Assembly (NCBI GenBank): GCA_001779925.1
Contig: MFEK01000014.1
Location: 86,983-150,982 of the forward strand
DNA: 64,000 bases
Origin: Candidatus Doudnabacteria bacterium RIFCSPHIGHO2_01_FULL_46_14
GTDB lineage: Bacteria > Patescibacteriota > Doudnabacteria > UBA920 > 2-01-FULL-46-14
Direction: 5' to 3'
How positions within the stretch are numbered: position 1 is the stretch's first letter; every line of letters starts with the position of its first letter. Made by a program: the position numbers and the translations under genes. Positions 6,998-62,402 of this stretch are shown piece after piece. The notes beneath the pieces are model-generated. The model made no database searches and was not told the DNA's origin. It saw only the letters and a program-made list of their open reading frames with translations.

Positions 6998-7072
6998 GGC
7001 CCTGTAGCTCAAAGGATAGAGCACTAGTCTTCGGAACTAGTGATGGGGGTTCAATTCCCTCCAGGGTCACCA
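6998..7072 (+). tRNA. tRNA-Arg (anticodon TCG)
   Basis: Manual cloverleaf: acceptor GGCCCTG/CAGGGTC, D arm GCTC..GAGC, anticodon stem CTAGT/ACTAG with loop CTTCGGA, T loop TTCAATT, CCA encoded. Confidence 0.8.
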
Positions 7073-7278: not shown

Positions 7279-7354
7279 GGGTCGGTAGCTCAGTTGGTAG
7301 AGCAGGGGACTCTTAATCCCAAGGTCGTGGGTTCGATCCCCACCCGACCCACCA
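7279..7354 (+). tRNA. tRNA-Lys (anticodon CTT)
   Basis: Manual cloverleaf: acceptor GGGTCGG/CCGACCC, anticodon loop CTCTTAA, T arm GTGGGTTCGATCCCCAC, CCA encoded. Confidence 0.85.
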
Positions 7355-7605: not shown

Positions 7606-8670
7606 ATGATCAATTTTTTCTACGGCGAAGACACATTCACTCTGAGCCAGGAAATTACAAATTTAAAAGCAAGGTTTAAATTTGTGGAAACGCTGTCCAT
7701 CAACGGCGAATCAGATGTTCAGCTCAAAAATAAACTTCAGGACATCCTGCAAAGCCAAGGACTGTTTGTACAAAAAAAACTAGTAATTTTGAACAATTTT
7801 TTAACTGATGTAAAAGCCTATCCGCAGACTGAGGAGTATTTGCTTAAGGCTTTGAATAACTCGAACAGTGAGACTACGGTAGTGATTGCGCAGGAAGAAA
7901 AATTCGATCGCAGATTGAAATTTTTTAAAGCCTTGCAGAAAATAGCCCAGAATCGCGAATTCACTATCCCGGCGGGAAAAGATCTGGAAATTTGGATTAA
8001 GAGTTATTTGGGTCACCGGGGATTTGAAATCGAAAACAGTGGGCTTGTGGAATTAATTGCAAGATTGAGTGATGATGGTATTGACCCCGTTAGAAATAGC
8101 CCGTCCCAATGGGCATCTGGGCGTACTAGCACGGGCGAGATTGCTAACGGGACGAGTTTGTGGCAGGTCAGCTCGGAGTTGGAGAAATTGATGCTATTTC
8201 GATCCCCCCCCTCCCTCAGTCCCTCCCCACCAGGGGGAGGGAAGATTGCATTCGCTGACGTTCGCGATCTTGTGATGCCTAATATTTCCCAAAATGTGTT
8301 CCAGCTCACCAATCTATTCGCTGAAGGAAGAGGCCGTGAAGCTGTATCGCTTTTGGAAAAAATGATGAGCGCACCGCAGGCCTCGGATCTGAAATCTCAA
8401 ACCATTCAGATCATCGGGGGTCTGGCCTCCCAGATCCGAAGCTTGCTTTTGGTCAAGGATTTGGAAAGAGAGACACCTTCAAAGATTGCCGAGATTTTGA
8501 GTTGGAAAGAGGGACGAGTTTGGATAAACTCAAAGCTGGCCAAAAAATTCACAAAGGAAAAATTGCTTGGATTGATGCGCGACCTACGTGCGCTCGATTT
8601 ACGCTTGAAAACTTCGGAAGAACCGCCTAAACTGCTATTATCGCTATTCTTACAGAAAGCCAAAGTTTAA
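7606..8670 (+). CDS. holA: DNA polymerase III delta subunit-like protein carrying an in-frame repeat insertion
   Basis: N-terminal MINFFYGEDTF delta-subunit motif. A low-complexity insert (PVRNSPSQWASGRT..., PPSLSPSPPGGG) is encoded by the repeat elements at 8085-8245. Confidence 0.55.
   Translation: MINFFYGEDTFTLSQEITNLKARFKFVETLSINGESDVQLKNKLQDILQSQGLFVQKKLVILNNFLTDVKAYPQTEEYLLKALNNSNSETTVVIAQEEKFDRRLKFFKALQKIAQNREFTIPAGKDLEIWIKSYLGHRGFEIENSGLVELIARLSDDGIDPVRNSPSQWASGRTSTGEIANGTSLWQVSSELEKLMLFRSPPSLSPSPPGGGKIAFADVRDLVMPNISQNVFQLTNLFAEGRGREAVSLLEKMMSAPQASDLKSQTIQIIGGLASQIRSLLLVKDLERETPSKIAEILSWKEGRVWINSKLAKKFTKEKLLGLMRDLRALDLRLKTSEEPPKLLLSLFLQKAKV
8085..8151. mobile_element. Second copy of the CCCCGTTAGAAAT-TIR element family, inserted in frame inside holA
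   Basis: Shares the 20-mer TTAGAAATAGCCCGTCCCAA and further homology with the copy at 24369-24429. Imperfect TIR CCCCGTTAGAAAT / ATTGCTAACGGG. Confidence 0.5.
8201..8245. repeat. GC-rich hairpin repeat (TCCCTCCCC ACCA GGGGGAGGGA) of the CCCCTCC..GGAGGGG family, in frame in holA
   Basis: Family members at 10167-10199, 10576-10598 and 54241-54300. Confidence 0.45.
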
Positions 8671-9529: not shown

Positions 9530-10157
9530 GTACATCGACATAAGCTTGAGCCTCGACAATACTACGTTTCCCTGGCCGGGCGACACGAGATTTGTTCGCT
9601 TGGAGAAAAAAGGATCCGGAATAGTTTCCCAGCTAATCATGTCAACGCATACCGGTACTCACATTGACGCACCCAAGCATTTTTTGTTTGATAAATCCGG
9701 CGTTGATCAAATTCAGCTAGCGAAATTGATCGGACCGGCGCGAGTTATGGCGATAAATTCTGAAAAATTAATCACAGTAAAAGATATTCTGTCGGCCCAA
9801 GGCCGATCCGCCTCGGGCGGAAAAATCCAAAAAGCGGAACGGATCTTGTTTAAAACCAGAAATTCCAAACTTTATAAAAAAGGCAGATTCACGGCTGATT
9901 ATGTTTCGTTGTCCCTTGAGGGTGCCGAGTATCTGGCAAAAAAGAAAATCAGTCTCGTTGGCATAGATTATCTGGGCATTGAAGCCAAAAGCGCGCCCGG
10001 GCATCCGGTGCACAAGACACTGCTTGCAGCAGGCATTGTGAATCTGGAGGGACTAGATTTATCCAAGGTCAAACCAGGCAATTACAATCTCGCGGCATTG
10101 CCGCTGAAAATAAAAGCTGGAGATGGTTCACCGTGCAGGGCTATTTTGTGGCGTTAG
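9522..10157 (+). CDS. Cyclase-family protein (kynurenine formamidase-like)
   Basis: HTGTHIDAPKHF cyclase signature. Confidence 0.65.
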   Translation: MAKYIDISLSLDNTTFPWPGDTRFVRLEKKGSGIVSQLIMSTHTGTHIDAPKHFLFDKSGVDQIQLAKLIGPARVMAINSEKLITVKDILSAQGRSASGGKIQKAERILFKTRNSKLYKKGRFTADYVSLSLEGAEYLAKKKISLVGIDYLGIEAKSAPGHPVHKTLLAAGIVNLEGLDLSKVKPGNYNLAALPLKIKAGDGSPCRAILWR

Positions 10158-10552
10158 GAATCTTTTCCCCTCCTTAACAAGGAGGGGTTAGGGGAGGTCT
10201 TGATTGCAGTCTCTATCTCCTCAAGTACTGCCTCAAGATTTTTATAAATTTCCTGATTGGTGAATCGAAGAAACTTGATGCCAAAAGATTGAATATAAGC
10301 CTGCCTATCCTTGTCCAGTCTTGCCGAATTGTCGTCAAAATGTGAATCACCATCAATTTCAATGGCCAATTTCAGGAGCGGGCAATAAAAATCAACAATA
10401 TATTTGCCTACACTGTATTGTCTGCGAAATTTTACGCCGAGTACACTTTTGTTTTTAAGATGCCCCCACAGGATCCGTTCTGCCGGGGGCATATCTGTTC
10501 TTAATTTTTGTCTTTTGATTTTTTCTGATGTCTTATTGAAGGTTTTTGTCAT
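10154..10552 (-). CDS. DUF559 (Vsr-like PD-(D/E)xK) endonuclease-domain protein
   Basis: ERILWGHLKN...KFRRQYSVGKYIVDFYCP...LAIEIDGDSHF...FLRFTNQEI. The C-terminal 14 aa are encoded by the flanking hairpin repeat. Confidence 0.65.
   Translation of the reverse strand: MTKTFNKTSEKIKRQKLRTDMPPAERILWGHLKNKSVLGVKFRRQYSVGKYIVDFYCPLLKLAIEIDGDSHFDDNSARLDKDRQAYIQSFGIKFLRFTNQEIYKNLEAVLEEIETAIKTSPNPSLLRRGKDS
10167..10199. repeat. Hairpin CCCCTCCTTAACAAGGAGGGG followed by TTAGGGGAGGTC; left inverted-repeat boundary of the DUF559 unit
   Basis: AGGGGAGGTC (10190-10199) is the exact reverse complement of GACCTCCCCT (10576-10585). Confidence 0.55.
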
Positions 10553-10575
10553 TTTTTACCCCACCTGACCTCCCC

Positions 10576-10598
10576 TTGTAAAGGGGAGGAACAAAACA
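10576..10598. repeat. Hairpin CCTCCCCTTGTAAAGGGGAGG; right inverted-repeat boundary of the DUF559 unit
   Basis: Mirror of the left hairpin; same loop type TTAACAA / TTGTAAA. Confidence 0.55.
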
Positions 10599-11528
10599 TC
10601 ATTTTTTATATTTGACCTCATGTCCGCCAAATTGCTTTCGAAGCAGGGCTACGATTTTGTTGGAAAAAATTTCCTGATTCTCCGGCTTTTCGGATTCTTG
10701 CCTGACGCGAAAGGCATCTTCCATTACCGGAACATTTACGCCCAGGCGTTTTGCTTCGTCAACAGTCCATTTGCCTTCGCCTGTATGGTGCACATAGCCG
10801 ACAACGTTATCAAGATCCTCAGTGTCAAAAATATTTTTAGCGAGGTCCACGAGCCAAGAGGATACCACTGAGCCTTTGCTCCAGATGTGCGCCACCTGCG
10901 AGAAATCAAGGTTTTTAAATTCAGACGCTTTCAGAACGCCGAAGCCTTCGGCGATCGCCTCCATCATGCCGTACTCGATGGCATTGTGCACCATTTTGAC
11001 GAAATGGCCCGCGCCGTTCGGACCAACCAGACCGAAATTTTCGCCATTGCCGGCCGCCAGCGCTTTGAATACTGGCTCTACCCGCGGCCAGATTTCTTTG
11101 GGACCACCAACCATGATGGAAAAGCCGTTTCTCTCTCCCCACACGCCGCCTGATGTGCCACTGTCGAAAAAATGAATACCTTGCTCTGCGAGTTTTTTGG
11201 CCCGGATTTGCGAGTCACGGTAAAAAGAATTGCCACCGTCTATCACAATATCACCTTTCGACAAGCTCAGGGCCTTCGGCCCAAAAAGGAATTCATCGAC
11301 GAGGTCACCAGCAGGGAGCATTAACCAGACGATTCGTGGTGAGTCTATTTCTGTAATTAGTTGCTCTGGAGTTTCCGCGACCTGGCCCCCAAACTTCGCA
11401 AATTCCTCCCGCGGTCCCGGACTGCGGTTCCATGCAATGATGTTAAATTTATTGGTATGCAGTCTGCGGGCAATCTGCGCGCCCATTCTACCAAGCCCCA
11501 TTATGCCTATTGTTACCTGATGTGCCAT
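10599..11528 (-). CDS. gnd: 6-phosphogluconate dehydrogenase, decarboxylating (short YqeC-type)
   Basis: N-terminal IGIMGLGRMGAQIARRL NAD-binding fold; typical length; overlaps zwf stop. Confidence 0.8.
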   Translation of the reverse strand: MAHQVTIGIMGLGRMGAQIARRLHTNKFNIIAWNRSPGPREEFAKFGGQVAETPEQLITEIDSPRIVWLMLPAGDLVDEFLFGPKALSLSKGDIVIDGGNSFYRDSQIRAKKLAEQGIHFFDSGTSGGVWGERNGFSIMVGGPKEIWPRVEPVFKALAAGNGENFGLVGPNGAGHFVKMVHNAIEYGMMEAIAEGFGVLKASEFKNLDFSQVAHIWSKGSVVSSWLVDLAKNIFDTEDLDNVVGYVHHTGEGKWTVDEAKRLGVNVPVMEDAFRVRQESEKPENQEIFSNKIVALLRKQFGGHEVKYKK

Positions 11529-13466: not shown

Positions 13467-13538
13467 CTCCCCGTAGTTCAATGGATAGAACGGGAGCCTT
13501 CTAAGCTCTTGATGTAGGTTCGATTCCTACCGGGGGGA
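13467..13538 (+). tRNA. tRNA-Arg (anticodon TCT), inner intact copy, no CCA encoded
   Basis: Acceptor CTCCCCG/CGGGGGG, D arm GTTC..GAAC, anticodon stem GGAGC/GCTCT with loop CTTCTAA, T arm GTAGGTTCGATTCCTAC. Confidence 0.75.
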
Positions 13539-14359: not shown

Positions 14360-14434
14360 GGTGCCCGTAGTTCAATGGTAGAACGCCGCTCTGTGGCAGC
14401 GGTCACGAGGGTCCGATTCCCTTCGGGCACCCCA
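14360..14434 (+). tRNA. tRNA-His (anticodon GTG) with G-1 and encoded CCA
   Basis: G-1 then acceptor GTGCCCG/CGGGCAC, anticodon loop CTGTGGC, T arm GAGGGTCCGATTCCCTT, discriminator C. Confidence 0.85.
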
Positions 14435-24279: not shown

Positions 24280-24368
24280 AAGATATAGATTTGAGATCTA
24301 AAATCCAGTATTCTCGCTCATGGCAAGCAATGATGTAGCCTTACAAAGCAGGGGGAGGCTTTACCCTC

Positions 24369-24429
24369 TTAGAAATAGCCCGTCCCAAAGGCTCTTTGGG
24401 CGCACAAAAGCGCGGGCGCAATTTCAAAT
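24369..24429. mobile_element. 61-bp member of the CCCCGTTAGAAAT element family inserted at the pilin GFTL-coding site, flanked by 12-bp direct repeat GGCTTTACCCTC (24357-24368 and 24431-24442)
   Basis: Shares the 20-mer TTAGAAATAGCCCGTCCCAA with the holA copy. Direct repeats read from the sequence. Confidence 0.6.
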
Positions 24430-24904
24430 GGGCTTTACCCTCATCGAACTCCTCGTGGTCATCTCCGTCATCGGGCTTTTGGCCAGCGTGATTATGGTGG
24501 CTTTGAATTCAGCAAGAGTAAAAGCACGGGACATTAAAAGAATGTCCGATATAGGACAATTGCAGACGGCTTTGGAACTTTATTACGATAAATACAGTAT
24601 TTATCCGAACATCTCTCAATCCGCTGATTCTACCAATTGCGAAGATCGCACGCCGGCCCTAGTTTTTTATTTGGGTGAATTCATGTCATCTATTCCCCAC
24701 GACCCACAAGGTCCGCCCGCTGTTCCAAATGTTGATGCCGGTCCCGATCGCCATTGTTATTTTTATAATGTAAAAAAGAGCGGCCAGGGTTATGTAATTA
24801 TGGCTTACCAGGTCGAGCAGGTAACGACGGCTGCAAAAGGTGAAGGAGCGGCGTGTTATCCGGATGTGGTAAACGTTTATTGTAAAGGAATCAATTACCA
24901 ATAA
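24428..24904 (+). CDS. Type IV pilin-like protein, array member 2 (alternative upstream start 24320 reads through the inserted element)
   Basis: MGFTLIELLVVISVIGLLASVIMVALNSARVKARD; the ATG lies at the element/target junction. Confidence 0.55.
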   Translation: MGFTLIELLVVISVIGLLASVIMVALNSARVKARDIKRMSDIGQLQTALELYYDKYSIYPNISQSADSTNCEDRTPALVFYLGEFMSSIPHDPQGPPAVPNVDAGPDRHCYFYNVKKSGQGYVIMAYQVEQVTTAAKGEGAACYPDVVNVYCKGINYQ

Positions 24905-61505: not shown

Positions 61506-62402
61506 TTGATGGATCCGAAACTCATCGACACTCATACTCATGTCAATTTCCAAGCTTTTAAAAGCGATTCCGATGAGGTAATCCAAAGGTCCTTAGATTC
61601 CGGCGTATGGATGATAAATGCTGGGACTAAATTTGAAACTTCACGCGCGGCCGTGGAGCTTGCGGAAAATTATTCAGACGGGGTGTACGCTGCAGTAAGC
61701 CTGCACCCGATTCATCTGTTTGAGCATCATGTGGATATTAGCGAAGAAGGGCGGTCTTTTAACGGTGCCGGAGAAGAGTTTGATATGGATGCGTACAGAG
61801 ACTTGATTTCTCGTTCGATAAAAGTTGTCGCGATAGGCGAATTTGGTCTTGATTATTACAGACTCCCAAAGAATGTAGATCCCGAAGAAATAAAGCAGAA
61901 ACAAAAAGAAGTAATGATTGAGCATATCAAATTAGCAAGAGAGGTCAACAAACCGCTTATGATCCACTGTCGCCCCAGCGAAGGAACAATGGACGCGTAC
62001 GAAGACGTTTTGAAAATCCTAGACCAGTATTGCGTACTTTTTTCCCCTCCACGCGAAGGAGCGATGTCAGGGGAGGTCAGAGGTTTTGAAATCCACTGCT
62101 TTACCGGTTCTTCCGATATCGCTCAGGAATTTGTAAAGCGCGGCGGCTATATTGCCCTCAACGGCATAATAACTTTTGATAAATCCGGGCGGAGTGATGA
62201 AGTTGTCAAAAATTTACCCCTCGAATGGGCCATTCTCGAAACCGACGCGCCTTATCTCACGCCAATGCCACATCGCGGCAAACGCAATGAGCCTTCTTAT
62301 GTCAGATACGTCGCCGAAAAATTTGCAGAAATGAAGGGGATCGAGCCTGCCGAGGTCGAACGGGTCACCACTGCCAATGCTAGAAAATTATTTCGAATAT
62401 AA
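61506..62402 (+). CDS. tatD: TatD-family metal-dependent hydrolase
   Basis: MMDPKLIDTHTHVNF...HCFTGS...LETDAPYL signatures. Confidence 0.85.
   Translation: MMDPKLIDTHTHVNFQAFKSDSDEVIQRSLDSGVWMINAGTKFETSRAAVELAENYSDGVYAAVSLHPIHLFEHHVDISEEGRSFNGAGEEFDMDAYRDLISRSIKVVAIGEFGLDYYRLPKNVDPEEIKQKQKEVMIEHIKLAREVNKPLMIHCRPSEGTMDAYEDVLKILDQYCVLFSPPREGAMSGEVRGFEIHCFTGSSDIAQEFVKRGGYIALNGIITFDKSGRSDEVVKNLPLEWAILETDAPYLTPMPHRGKRNEPSYVRYVAEKFAEMKGIEPAEVERVTTANARKLFRI

Follow-up and report, generated by a model that had tools for sequence, protein, structure and literature searches.

BoxC repeats were first described in the 1990s (Bachellier). They have since been redefined as intrastrand-triplex repeats (TM/TMECO; Holder et al. 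2015, PMC4666352), a class that also takes in the PIT elements of Hoyne and Maher 2000. Each repeat consists of three stems of 6-15 nt (pyrimidine, complementary purine and mirror purine), separated by loops of 1-6 nt; the second loop is 3 nt long and of type TTA or CCG, and inverted A + B doublets are frequent (PMC4666352). The motifs are abundant in Enterobacter, Microcystis, Anabaena and Nostoc and have been tied to genome instability and rearrangement hot spots, and PIT elements block DNA polymerase in vitro and show neither promoter nor terminator activity (PMC4666352). Holder et al. never found mobility functions near TMECO sites, and the terms endonuclease, DUF559 and ycjD are absent from their paper (PMC4666352). 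Here, we describe a candidate protein partner for repeats of this kind. It emerged from a 64-kb stretch of DNA (the window, analysed at its full length) from a Candidatus Doudnabacteria genome of the candidate phyla radiation (CPR), sampled at the Rifle aquifer, in which the open reading frame (ORF) of a DUF559 nuclease is bracketed by two inverted triplex-type units.

In its logic, this locus is similar to the REP/REPIN-RAYT system ('REPtron'; PMC3116915, PMC6006769), in which, likewise, a low-copy nuclease-type gene lies between inverted copies of a dispersed structured repeat, the repeats occur as singlets and as inverted doublets, and the gene passes on vertically and is patchily distributed. 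The two systems differ in enzyme fold and in DNA structure. The RAYT enzyme is an HUH-Y1 transposase (TnpA-REP), whereas a Vsr-like PD-(D/E)XK nuclease is found here; the REP unit is a simple hairpin, whereas the units here combine a hairpin with a third-strand box; and the GTAG/CGTC tetranucleotide at the foot of REP hairpins is absent from the four units of the window. We put at about even the chance that the locus, by analogy with REP/RAYT, is a module made up of a nuclease and its cognate repeats.

The nuclease ORF occupies positions 10154-10552 on the minus strand and encodes 132 amino acids. It had been called a Vsr-like DUF559 nuclease in an earlier note on this DNA, and that identification is secure: the Pfam DUF559 family (PF04480) is matched with E=4e-31 and 107.5 bits (cut-off 20.6), and all Pfam matches are to PD-(D/E)XK-type families, with none to an HUH family. 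This is the only DUF559 gene in the window and the sole ORF between the flanking units, where no recognised transposase is found. To our knowledge, DUF559 is not a recognised transposase family. Against the NCBIfam model for YcjD (PRK09767), the ORF scores 68.8 bits, under the equivalog cut-off of 218, and it is thus a member of the family rather than a YcjD equivalog. PADLOC and PHROGs returned generic nuclease-domain matches and nothing more specific. Upstream of the gene, on its strand, are zwf and gnd; on the other side it runs toward a convergent cyclase gene and overlaps the stop codon of that gene. No cytosine methyltransferase gene was noticed among the neighbouring ORFs examined.

By sequence, the nearest solved structure is PDB 3HRL (Neisseria NGO0050; E=4e-17). 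An AlphaFold2 (AF2) model of the ORF (pLDDT 79.6; below 50 at residues 128-132) retrieved 3HRL in Foldseek with E=3e-7 and the catalytic domain of I-Bth0305I (3R3P) with E=2e-4 and a TM-score of 0.73-0.78 normalised to 3R3P; further matches were to PvuRts1I/AbaSI and, weakly, to E. coli Vsr (1VSR; E=0.06, TM-score 0.55). The model predicts a Vsr-like alpha/beta nuclease fold. All family-invariant residues are kept (R43, Q45, D54, E65, D67, H71, R83 and N99), and D54, E65, D67 and H71, the putative metal-site residues by comparison with the family, are invariant in 30 homologues. E. coli Vsr itself is a distant homologue with the same superfamily fold, and it nicks at an irregularity in DNA, the T:G mismatch.

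The two inverted units that bracket this ORF are each 31 nt long and have their boxes facing the gene. A C-rich Y-arm comes first, then a loop and a G-rich R-arm and, after a spacer of 3 nt, a G-box that is the mirror image of the R-arm. The 3'-flanking unit (10167-10199, plus strand) has Y-arm CCCCTCCTT (10167-75), loop AAC, R-arm AAGGAGGGG (10179-87), spacer TTA (10188-90) and mirror box GGGGAGG (10191-97), followed by TC, with the box toward the gene. The 5'-flanking unit (10558-10589, minus strand) has Y-arm CCTCCCCTT, loop TAC, R-arm AAGGGGAGG, spacer TCA and box GGTGGGGT, which carries a T opposite an A of the R-arm and is followed by AAAA and then the ATG. Read in the orientation of the gene, the whole is CCTCCCCTT-TAC-AAGGGGAGG-TCA-GGTGGGGT-aaaa-ATG...gene...GA-CCTCCCC-TAA-CCCCTCCTT-GTT-AAGGAGGGG. 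On the plus strand, the hairpins are CCCCTCCTT-AAC-AAGGAGGGG at 10167-10187 and CCTCCCCTT-GTA-AAGGGGAGG at 10569-10589, each with a 9-bp stem and a folding energy of -9.6 kcal/mol as single-stranded DNA (ViennaRNA, which models the hairpin part of the unit only). Between 0.00 and 0.02 such hairpins are expected in the window, and the full composite unit occurs four times, as against 0.03 times in Markov-simulated windows.

The earlier note had described the gene as flanked by inverted repeats, each beside a CCCCTCC/GGAGGGG hairpin. The hairpins are real, and AGGGGAGGTC (10190-10199) and GACCTCCCCT (10567-10576) do form a perfect 10-nt inverted pair; however, the right 10-mer lies inside the 5' arm of its hairpin, and that hairpin is built of CCTCCCC/GGGGAGG. 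The true counterpart of the left G-box is the minus-strand box GGTGGGGT, which reads ACCCCACC on the plus strand at 10558-10565. By itself the 10-mer is not significant, with four window sites at no more than one mismatch and 2.4 expected. The further claim that the left repeat encodes the C-terminus of the nuclease was borne out, in that residues ~118-132 (TSPNPSLLRRGKDS), the last ~15 codons, lie within the left (3') unit.

How do these units compare with the described class? All four units of the window fit the three-block pattern at 0-1 mismatch, with a first loop of 3-5 nt and a spacer of 3 nt in 4/4. Judged by their sequence, they are members of the BoxC/PIT/TM class that has already been described and are not peculiar to this element. 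The likeness extends to the three-block architecture, the acceptance of T opposite A in the third block, the inverted doublets, and the dispersal in variable regions. The window units nevertheless depart from the TMECO consensus CCCTCNCCC-N3-6-GGGNGAGGG-N3-GGGNGAGGG: their arms, of 7-9 nt, are CCCCTCC, CCTCCCC and CCCTCCCC, which places them in a different sequence subfamily. Moreover, TMECO repeats are reported to be strictly intergenic and to have no mobility gene, whereas those of the window surround a nuclease gene, and some lie within ORFs.

Further evidence that gene and repeats belong together comes from the rest of the family. The window protein has 2,786 homologues at E<=1e-5, and the best 120 are, apart from four closer relatives, 52-65% identical to it and come from Patescibacteria, Nitrospirota, Chloroflexota and Cyanobacteria. 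We surveyed 80 DUF559 loci taken from one-genome-per-species contigs. Within 150 bp of the gene, C/G-rich hairpins occur at 7.4 and 7.0 per kb on the two sides, about 50-fold more often than at 0.5-3 kb from it (~0.13 per kb in the remainder of the +-3 kb flanks), and a hairpin lies within 120 bp of a gene end in 70/77 loci; in 277 kb of related CPR loci that lack the gene, the density is 0.022 per kb. The commonest layout is [hairpin + G-box] - gene - [C-box + hairpin]. Doublets of the form [C-box + hairpin B] - ~15 nt - [hairpin A + G-box] often stand on both sides of the gene and also occur alone elsewhere, and in Nitrospinota, SAR202 and Deinococcus the layout is reversed, the gene lying within a split doublet. 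The C-terminal tails of the homologues (for example SPNPSLLRRG, PLLDKEG and SPPYEGGDLGEV) are one DNA motif read in different frames, which places the constraint on the DNA and not on the protein. A tight, oriented pairing of a stand-alone DUF559 gene with triplex-type units recurs in at least 13 phyla, and the view that nuclease and flanking hairpins form one conserved module applies family-wide. The link between DUF559 and these repeats appears to be unreported in the accessible literature (searches on DUF559, ycjD, the motif, Vsr-like nucleases, REPIN/RAYT, CPR inserts and Patescibacteria MITEs, that is, miniature inverted-repeat transposable elements).

Another explanation for such pairing would be that the hairpins regulate a potentially toxic nuclease in cis, by terminating transcription, insulating the gene or sequestering its ribosome-binding site, or that gene and hairpins both gather in permissive intergenic gaps. 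Several features of the window would suit this explanation: 4 nt separate the upstream box, which looks like a Shine-Dalgarno sequence, from the ATG; the cyclase gene and gnd have their stop codons 9-10 nt away from the hairpins; and the slot between these genes is a variable region. The units have no T-tail, however, and a terminator scan found nothing at the hairpins; the distance from box to ATG ranges from 3 to ~50 nt across loci; the missing promoter and terminator activity of PIT elements (PMC4666352) speaks against a regulatory role; and the A-or-T rule at mirror positions, described below, contradicts models based on Watson-Crick pairing. Passive co-location is also countered by the 50-fold local enrichment and by the orientation bias, and we regard this whole group of explanations as very improbable. 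A structured RNA was considered as well and set aside, since the only Rfam match at the locus is a sub-threshold one to sraL (17 bits; cut-off 39).

The third block of the units follows a mirror rule. Among 177 distinct asymmetric units, the box is better fitted by the mirror of the G-arm in 135 and by a direct copy in 3, with 39 ties, and perfect matches number 67 for the mirror and 1 for the direct copy. Where the G-arm has an internal A, the base facing it in the box is A 78 times, T 61 times, and C and G once each. The spacer is 3 nt long in 101/126 units, with the consensus [T/C]-T-[A/G], and the next box position, which mirrors the closing A:T pair, is T in 138/155. At least eight arm types covary with the box, among them GGAGGGG/GGGGAGG, GGGGGAG/GAGGGGG and GGAGAGGGG/GGGG[A/T]G[A/T]GG. 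Taken with established triplex pairing rules, G facing G and either A or T facing A, antiparallel via a short loop, is what would encode an intramolecular triple helix of the purine motif. Pairing between box and C-arm by Watson-Crick rules, whether as an alternative hairpin or as 5'-3' pairing in the mRNA, was rejected because it predicts a direct copy and no A-to-T tolerance. A G-quadruplex of G-arm and box is also conceivable; it predicts neither the mirror register nor the A/T rule. The mirror covariation is comparative evidence for selection on the third-strand block, and it favors the view that a DNA triplex, or a fold resembling one, has a biological role.

Another member of the family, E. 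coli YcjD, shows the same pairing. In E. coli K-12, ycjD lies at 1351407-1351760 on the minus strand; past its stop codon, at a distance of 168 bp, is TMECO #9 (1351204-1351239; Table 1 of Holder et al.). The C-arm of a type-B-like hairpin, CCGG-TCA-CCCTCTCCC-TGAAA-GAGCGAGGG, supplies the codons for the C-terminus of YcjD (..RRSPSP*). This hairpin is followed by a ~60-nt partial duplicate of the ycjD 3' end with a remnant unit (..CCATGAAAGGGTTAGGGGCTG; L173:1240-1420, between ycjD and fabI) and then by the type-A TMECO #9, so that the layout, gene - [C + hairpin B] - [hairpin A + G], is that of the family. With 18 TM loci in 4.64 Mb, we estimate the chance of a TM locus within 200 bp of a given gene at ~0.003. 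The ycjD locus is present in 3,377 of the 5,426 complete genomes of E. coli; phylogroups A, B1 and C have ycjD, and not eefRABCD, between fabI and sapF (PMC12817139, 2026). In an evenly spread E. coli sample, genomes with ycjD have a median of 19 TM places, compared with 8 in those without (Mann-Whitney p 3e-9).

Outside E. coli, the association was found in all of the distant homologues examined (6/6). On a Deinococcus psychrotolerans plasmid, a 495-bp element that resembles an insertion sequence (IS) lies between paaD and paaZ (L175:380-874). It starts 1 nt past the paaD stop codon, carries a 354-nt DUF559 ORF, and ends in 56-nt inverted repeats that are 98% complementary and that each contain a triplex-type unit. 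The pairing is also seen at Neisseria gonorrhoeae NGO0050, in Azospirillum, Photobacterium and Pseudanabaena, and on plasmid pAQ6 of Picosynechococcus PCC 7002.

Tandem duplication of the gene 3' end together with the unit is not peculiar to E. coli; it is also found at L058 and L044. Such duplications would sit well with a host enzyme that processes unusual structures, that is, a domesticated repair nuclease that clears triplex or hairpin blocks at replication forks, with the repeats spreading by slippage or template switching and the adjacency of gene and repeat being a matter of origin only. The polymerase block by PIT elements in vitro and the rearrangement hot spots at TM loci (PMC4666352) fit this proposal, as does the single-copy, vertically inherited state of the window gene. 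It does not explain the inverted bracketing of the gene by units in many phyla, nor the movement of whole modules between Nostocaceae contexts described below, and we judge it rather improbable.

We favor instead a relationship in which the nuclease acts on its own repeats, as in the module proposed at the outset. Wherever the hairpin or triplex folds, at the ends of its own module or in a solo copy, the nuclease would recognise the structure and nick there, and repair or copying of the nicked structure would maintain the units and occasionally disperse them. Dispersal would involve single units or A+B doublets and, less often, the gene, with surviving copies that include in-frame inserts in tolerant loops of essential genes (tgt and holA). 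By extension, stand-alone DUF559 proteins, including YcjD, might be the missing protein partners of the BoxC/PIT/TM repeats, acting as structure-specific nucleases that maintain and disperse them; we advance this broader claim tentatively, at somewhat less than even confidence.

The window contains two examples of dispersed units, both within coding sequence. The tgt gene (53966-55234, minus strand) carries an 87-nt in-frame doublet (54221-54307, plus strand; boundaries from DNA alignment). Its decayed part, [C-box + hairpin], covers 54221-54262; after 12 nt of spacer comes an intact [hairpin 54273-54293 + TTA + box GGGAAGG], the intact unit of hairpin and TTAGGGAAGG spanning 54273-54303. The resulting stretch of ~36 residues (307-342) lies where solved Tgt structures have only 4, and the insert is missing from the closest Tgt homologues (88, 77 and 75% identity). 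A solo unit (8204-8242, minus strand) lies in frame in holA (7606-8670, plus strand); it has the hairpin TCCCTCCCC/GGGGAGGGA at 8220-8242, the spacer CTG and the mirror box AGGGAGG, followed by a run of G (C-rich on the plus strand, 8204-8216). The holA gene of a relative (L083, 62% identity) lacks the residues of this unit. The earlier note had reported a hairpin with TTAGGG(G)AGG in both genes: this stands for tgt, as TTAGGGAAGG, whereas in holA only the hairpin stands, its box being on the other side and strand and having no TTAGGG. That these copies are in-frame inserts, absent from closer orthologues, agrees with the spread of non-autonomous copies that the note proposed. A probable decayed fifth unit (62044-62078, plus strand), CCCCTCC-ACGCGAA-GGAG..(8 nt)..GGGGAGGTC, lies inside the ORF at 61506-62402; it was recognised by eye only and fails the composite-unit scan.

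The Tgt loop that follows TRNARHGxLF carries varied Pro/Ser/Gly-rich inserts in many Doudnabacteria (for example SPFSPPSEEGSGEV and SPSPNPSHQGRG; homologues P0127, P0130, P0132, P0133/P0134, P0135, P0137, P0143, P0163 and P0170). The inserts of other Doudnabacteria at this loop, the same one as in the window, are hairpin-encoded and independent, and the variety of inserts at one loop suggests recurrent independent insertion of triplex-type units at a permissive site. Relative to solved structures, the Tgt of the window has a second insert of ~16 amino acids (KITNGPVKRQGDSCPI; window 54880-54930, residues ~104-119), where no triplex-type unit is found. Units of the same class (TCTCCCCC...GGGGGAGA + GTTA/TTAA + G[T/A]GGGGG) also occur in the holA and cyclase ORFs of a relative with no DUF559 at the locus (L089, 1248-1270 and 2741-2762).

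Two kinds of element offer parallels to these gene-less copies. Rickettsia palindromic elements, like other MITEs inserted in frame, are short palindromes reported to be tolerated as peptide inserts in housekeeping proteins (Ogata et al. 2000). They differ from the present units in being 100-150 bp long and in having no triplex-type third block and no known partner gene. An IS with its derived MITEs is a parallel in organization, with terminal inverted repeats on the gene-bearing unit and short gene-less derivatives, here the doublets that end in C-box...G-box.

If the repeats are dispersed by the nuclease, has the gene itself moved recently? In the three closest relatives (L083-L085), DUF559 is kept beside gnd, with proteins that are 90, 83 and 76% identical, and two of them have the cyclase gene next to it as well. 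Neither arms nor boxes vary among these relatives, while loops, spacers and coding third positions do (the spacer of the 5' unit among TC/CA/TT, and also the loop of the 3' unit) and the coding DNA has diverged to ~75%, a pattern from which purifying constraint on the flanking repeats can be read. One of these loci, L085, yields a called 222-aa 'DUF559' product (P0003) that is an artefact: its ORF starts in the upstream unit (MSLVPPLSKGRLGGVK-MTKIF...) and runs through the downstream unit into the antisense strand of the cyclase gene. More distant relatives with the holA-zip-cyclase / gnd-zwf synteny have both neighbours without DUF559, the gap being 308 bp in L086-L088 and 39 bp in L105; a check for empty sites between cyclase and gnd, called for by the earlier note, thus finds them. 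Since the closest relatives keep the gene and the distant syntenic ones lack it, the comparison points to an old insertion in a variable slot rather than a recent jump. The module at this locus is accordingly best read, from synteny and sequence, as one that entered the gap between the convergent genes for cyclase and gnd long ago and has been inherited vertically since. The notion of a selfish unit whose repeats had spread as non-autonomous copies fares in two ways: the terminal repeats are indeed related to the dispersed copies, whereas recent mobility of the gene at this site is contradicted by its synteny in the three closest relatives. The slot itself varies among other relatives (L086, L093/L094, L099, L092/L108, L089 and L103/L104), where it holds a NUDIX-like ORF, an ORF of ~220 aa, a zeta-toxin-like remnant or almost nothing, and in L095 (3094-3490) it holds a ~105-aa GIY-YIG-type nuclease flanked by GC hairpins of its own, ttcccgcgaaagcgggaa / atccccgatcaagtcggggat.

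Movement of the module is better seen in Nostocaceae, where a doublet-gene-doublet module of ~560-600 bp is 90-97% identical between species and 131/190 locus pairs have no common flanking sequence. Downstream of DUF559 at four Nostocaceae loci (L028, L047, L052 and L055), hairpins are broken just past the loop by CTACGGTGTACAC(G)CAAGTTATCGAA, after which a new C-box begins; the upstream unit of L047 ends exactly at the spacer, and the picture resembles nested small elements. Elhai et al. reportedly described cyanobacterial small dispersed repeats (SDR) in 2008, and these nested segments and some of the Nostoc units may match their SDR families. Two vehicles for movement between genomes were considered and rejected: phages gave 2 weak matches in 2.9 M viral contigs, and plasmid homologues were all at or below 51% identity, with several such records being mislabelled chromosomes.

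Mobility of this sort raises the possibility of a free-standing homing endonuclease, for which units and doublets would be pre-existing recognition sites; the gene would have inserted in or beside such a site and would spread by break repair to other occupied-site alleles only, and it would make no solo units. The EDxHD (Vsr-like) homing endonucleases (I-Bth0305I, PMC3239194; fractured-gene, PMC2677866) share the catalytic fold and are likewise small selfish nuclease genes, I-Bth0305I being the closest fold to the window protein after 3HRL. The placement of the gene inside a split doublet, [C-box+hairpin]-gene-[hairpin+G-box], in Nitrospinota and Deinococcus is what such insertion would produce; the gene is patchily distributed, yet its proteins are 55-65% identical across phyla; and the variable cyclase-gnd slot holds a GIY-YIG nuclease in L095. 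At most loci, however, the window's included, the boxes face the gene, which is the opposite arrangement, and homing would leave the new unit insertions in tgt and holA unexplained. The window gene is intergenic, with no intron, intein or split host gene, and its ORF lacks a NUMOD or HTH DNA-binding domain; flanking structured repeats are not a feature of the EDxHD family. On balance, we find homing unlikely as the explanation for the locus.

That a DUF559 nuclease recognises, nicks and mobilises the units, and so maintains and disperses its own repeats, is inferred, and several observations weigh against it. Actual formation of a triplex is known in vitro, for TMECO only, and in vivo footprinting with dimethyl sulfate (DMS) in E. 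coli saw no triplex protection (PMC4666352). The correlation between ycjD and TM count is confounded by phylogroup, and E. coli genomes without ycjD retain 1-18 TM loci. Unit orientation is not uniform across loci. In the 64-kb window, the gene is stable and single-copy and the unit family is small, with 4 intact members and 1 decayed. Finally, at the tgt, holA and Nostoc junctions we could delimit neither a target-site duplication nor a clean point of insertion: when aligned in pairs, syntenic Nostocaceae loci showed messy nested events only, and the empty sites (such as the 39-bp gap in L105) carry no recognisable target.

Should the proposal prove true, it would constitute a second, mechanistically independent REPtron-like system in >13 bacterial phyla, and DUF559 would be the first family of natural enzymes that sequence covariation links to a DNA triple helix. 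The role of thousands of stand-alone DUF559 nucleases, YcjD among them, and the origin and upkeep of BoxC/PIT/TM repeats would become testable together, with E. coli K-12 and Picosynechococcus PCC 7002 as tractable hosts. For annotation, the units account for the Pro/Ser/Gly-rich inserts and C-terminal tails that recur in proteins of CPR bacteria and cyanobacteria.

The window also contains a second, unrelated family of palindromic repeats, with the core GTTAGAAATAGCCCGTCCCAA...GGGCG..., at 8083-8147, 24369-24430, 1010-1092, ~8673 and ~13544. One copy forms a 20-aa in-frame insert in holA that is missing from L083, another lies inside the ORF at 24320-24904, and at 1010-1092 CCCCGTTAGAAAT and ATTTCTAACGGGG are inverted ends around 55 nt. 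The sole Rfam matches of the window at the gathering threshold are four tRNA genes, all on the plus strand, at 6998-7069, 7279-7351, 13467-13538 and 14361-14431.

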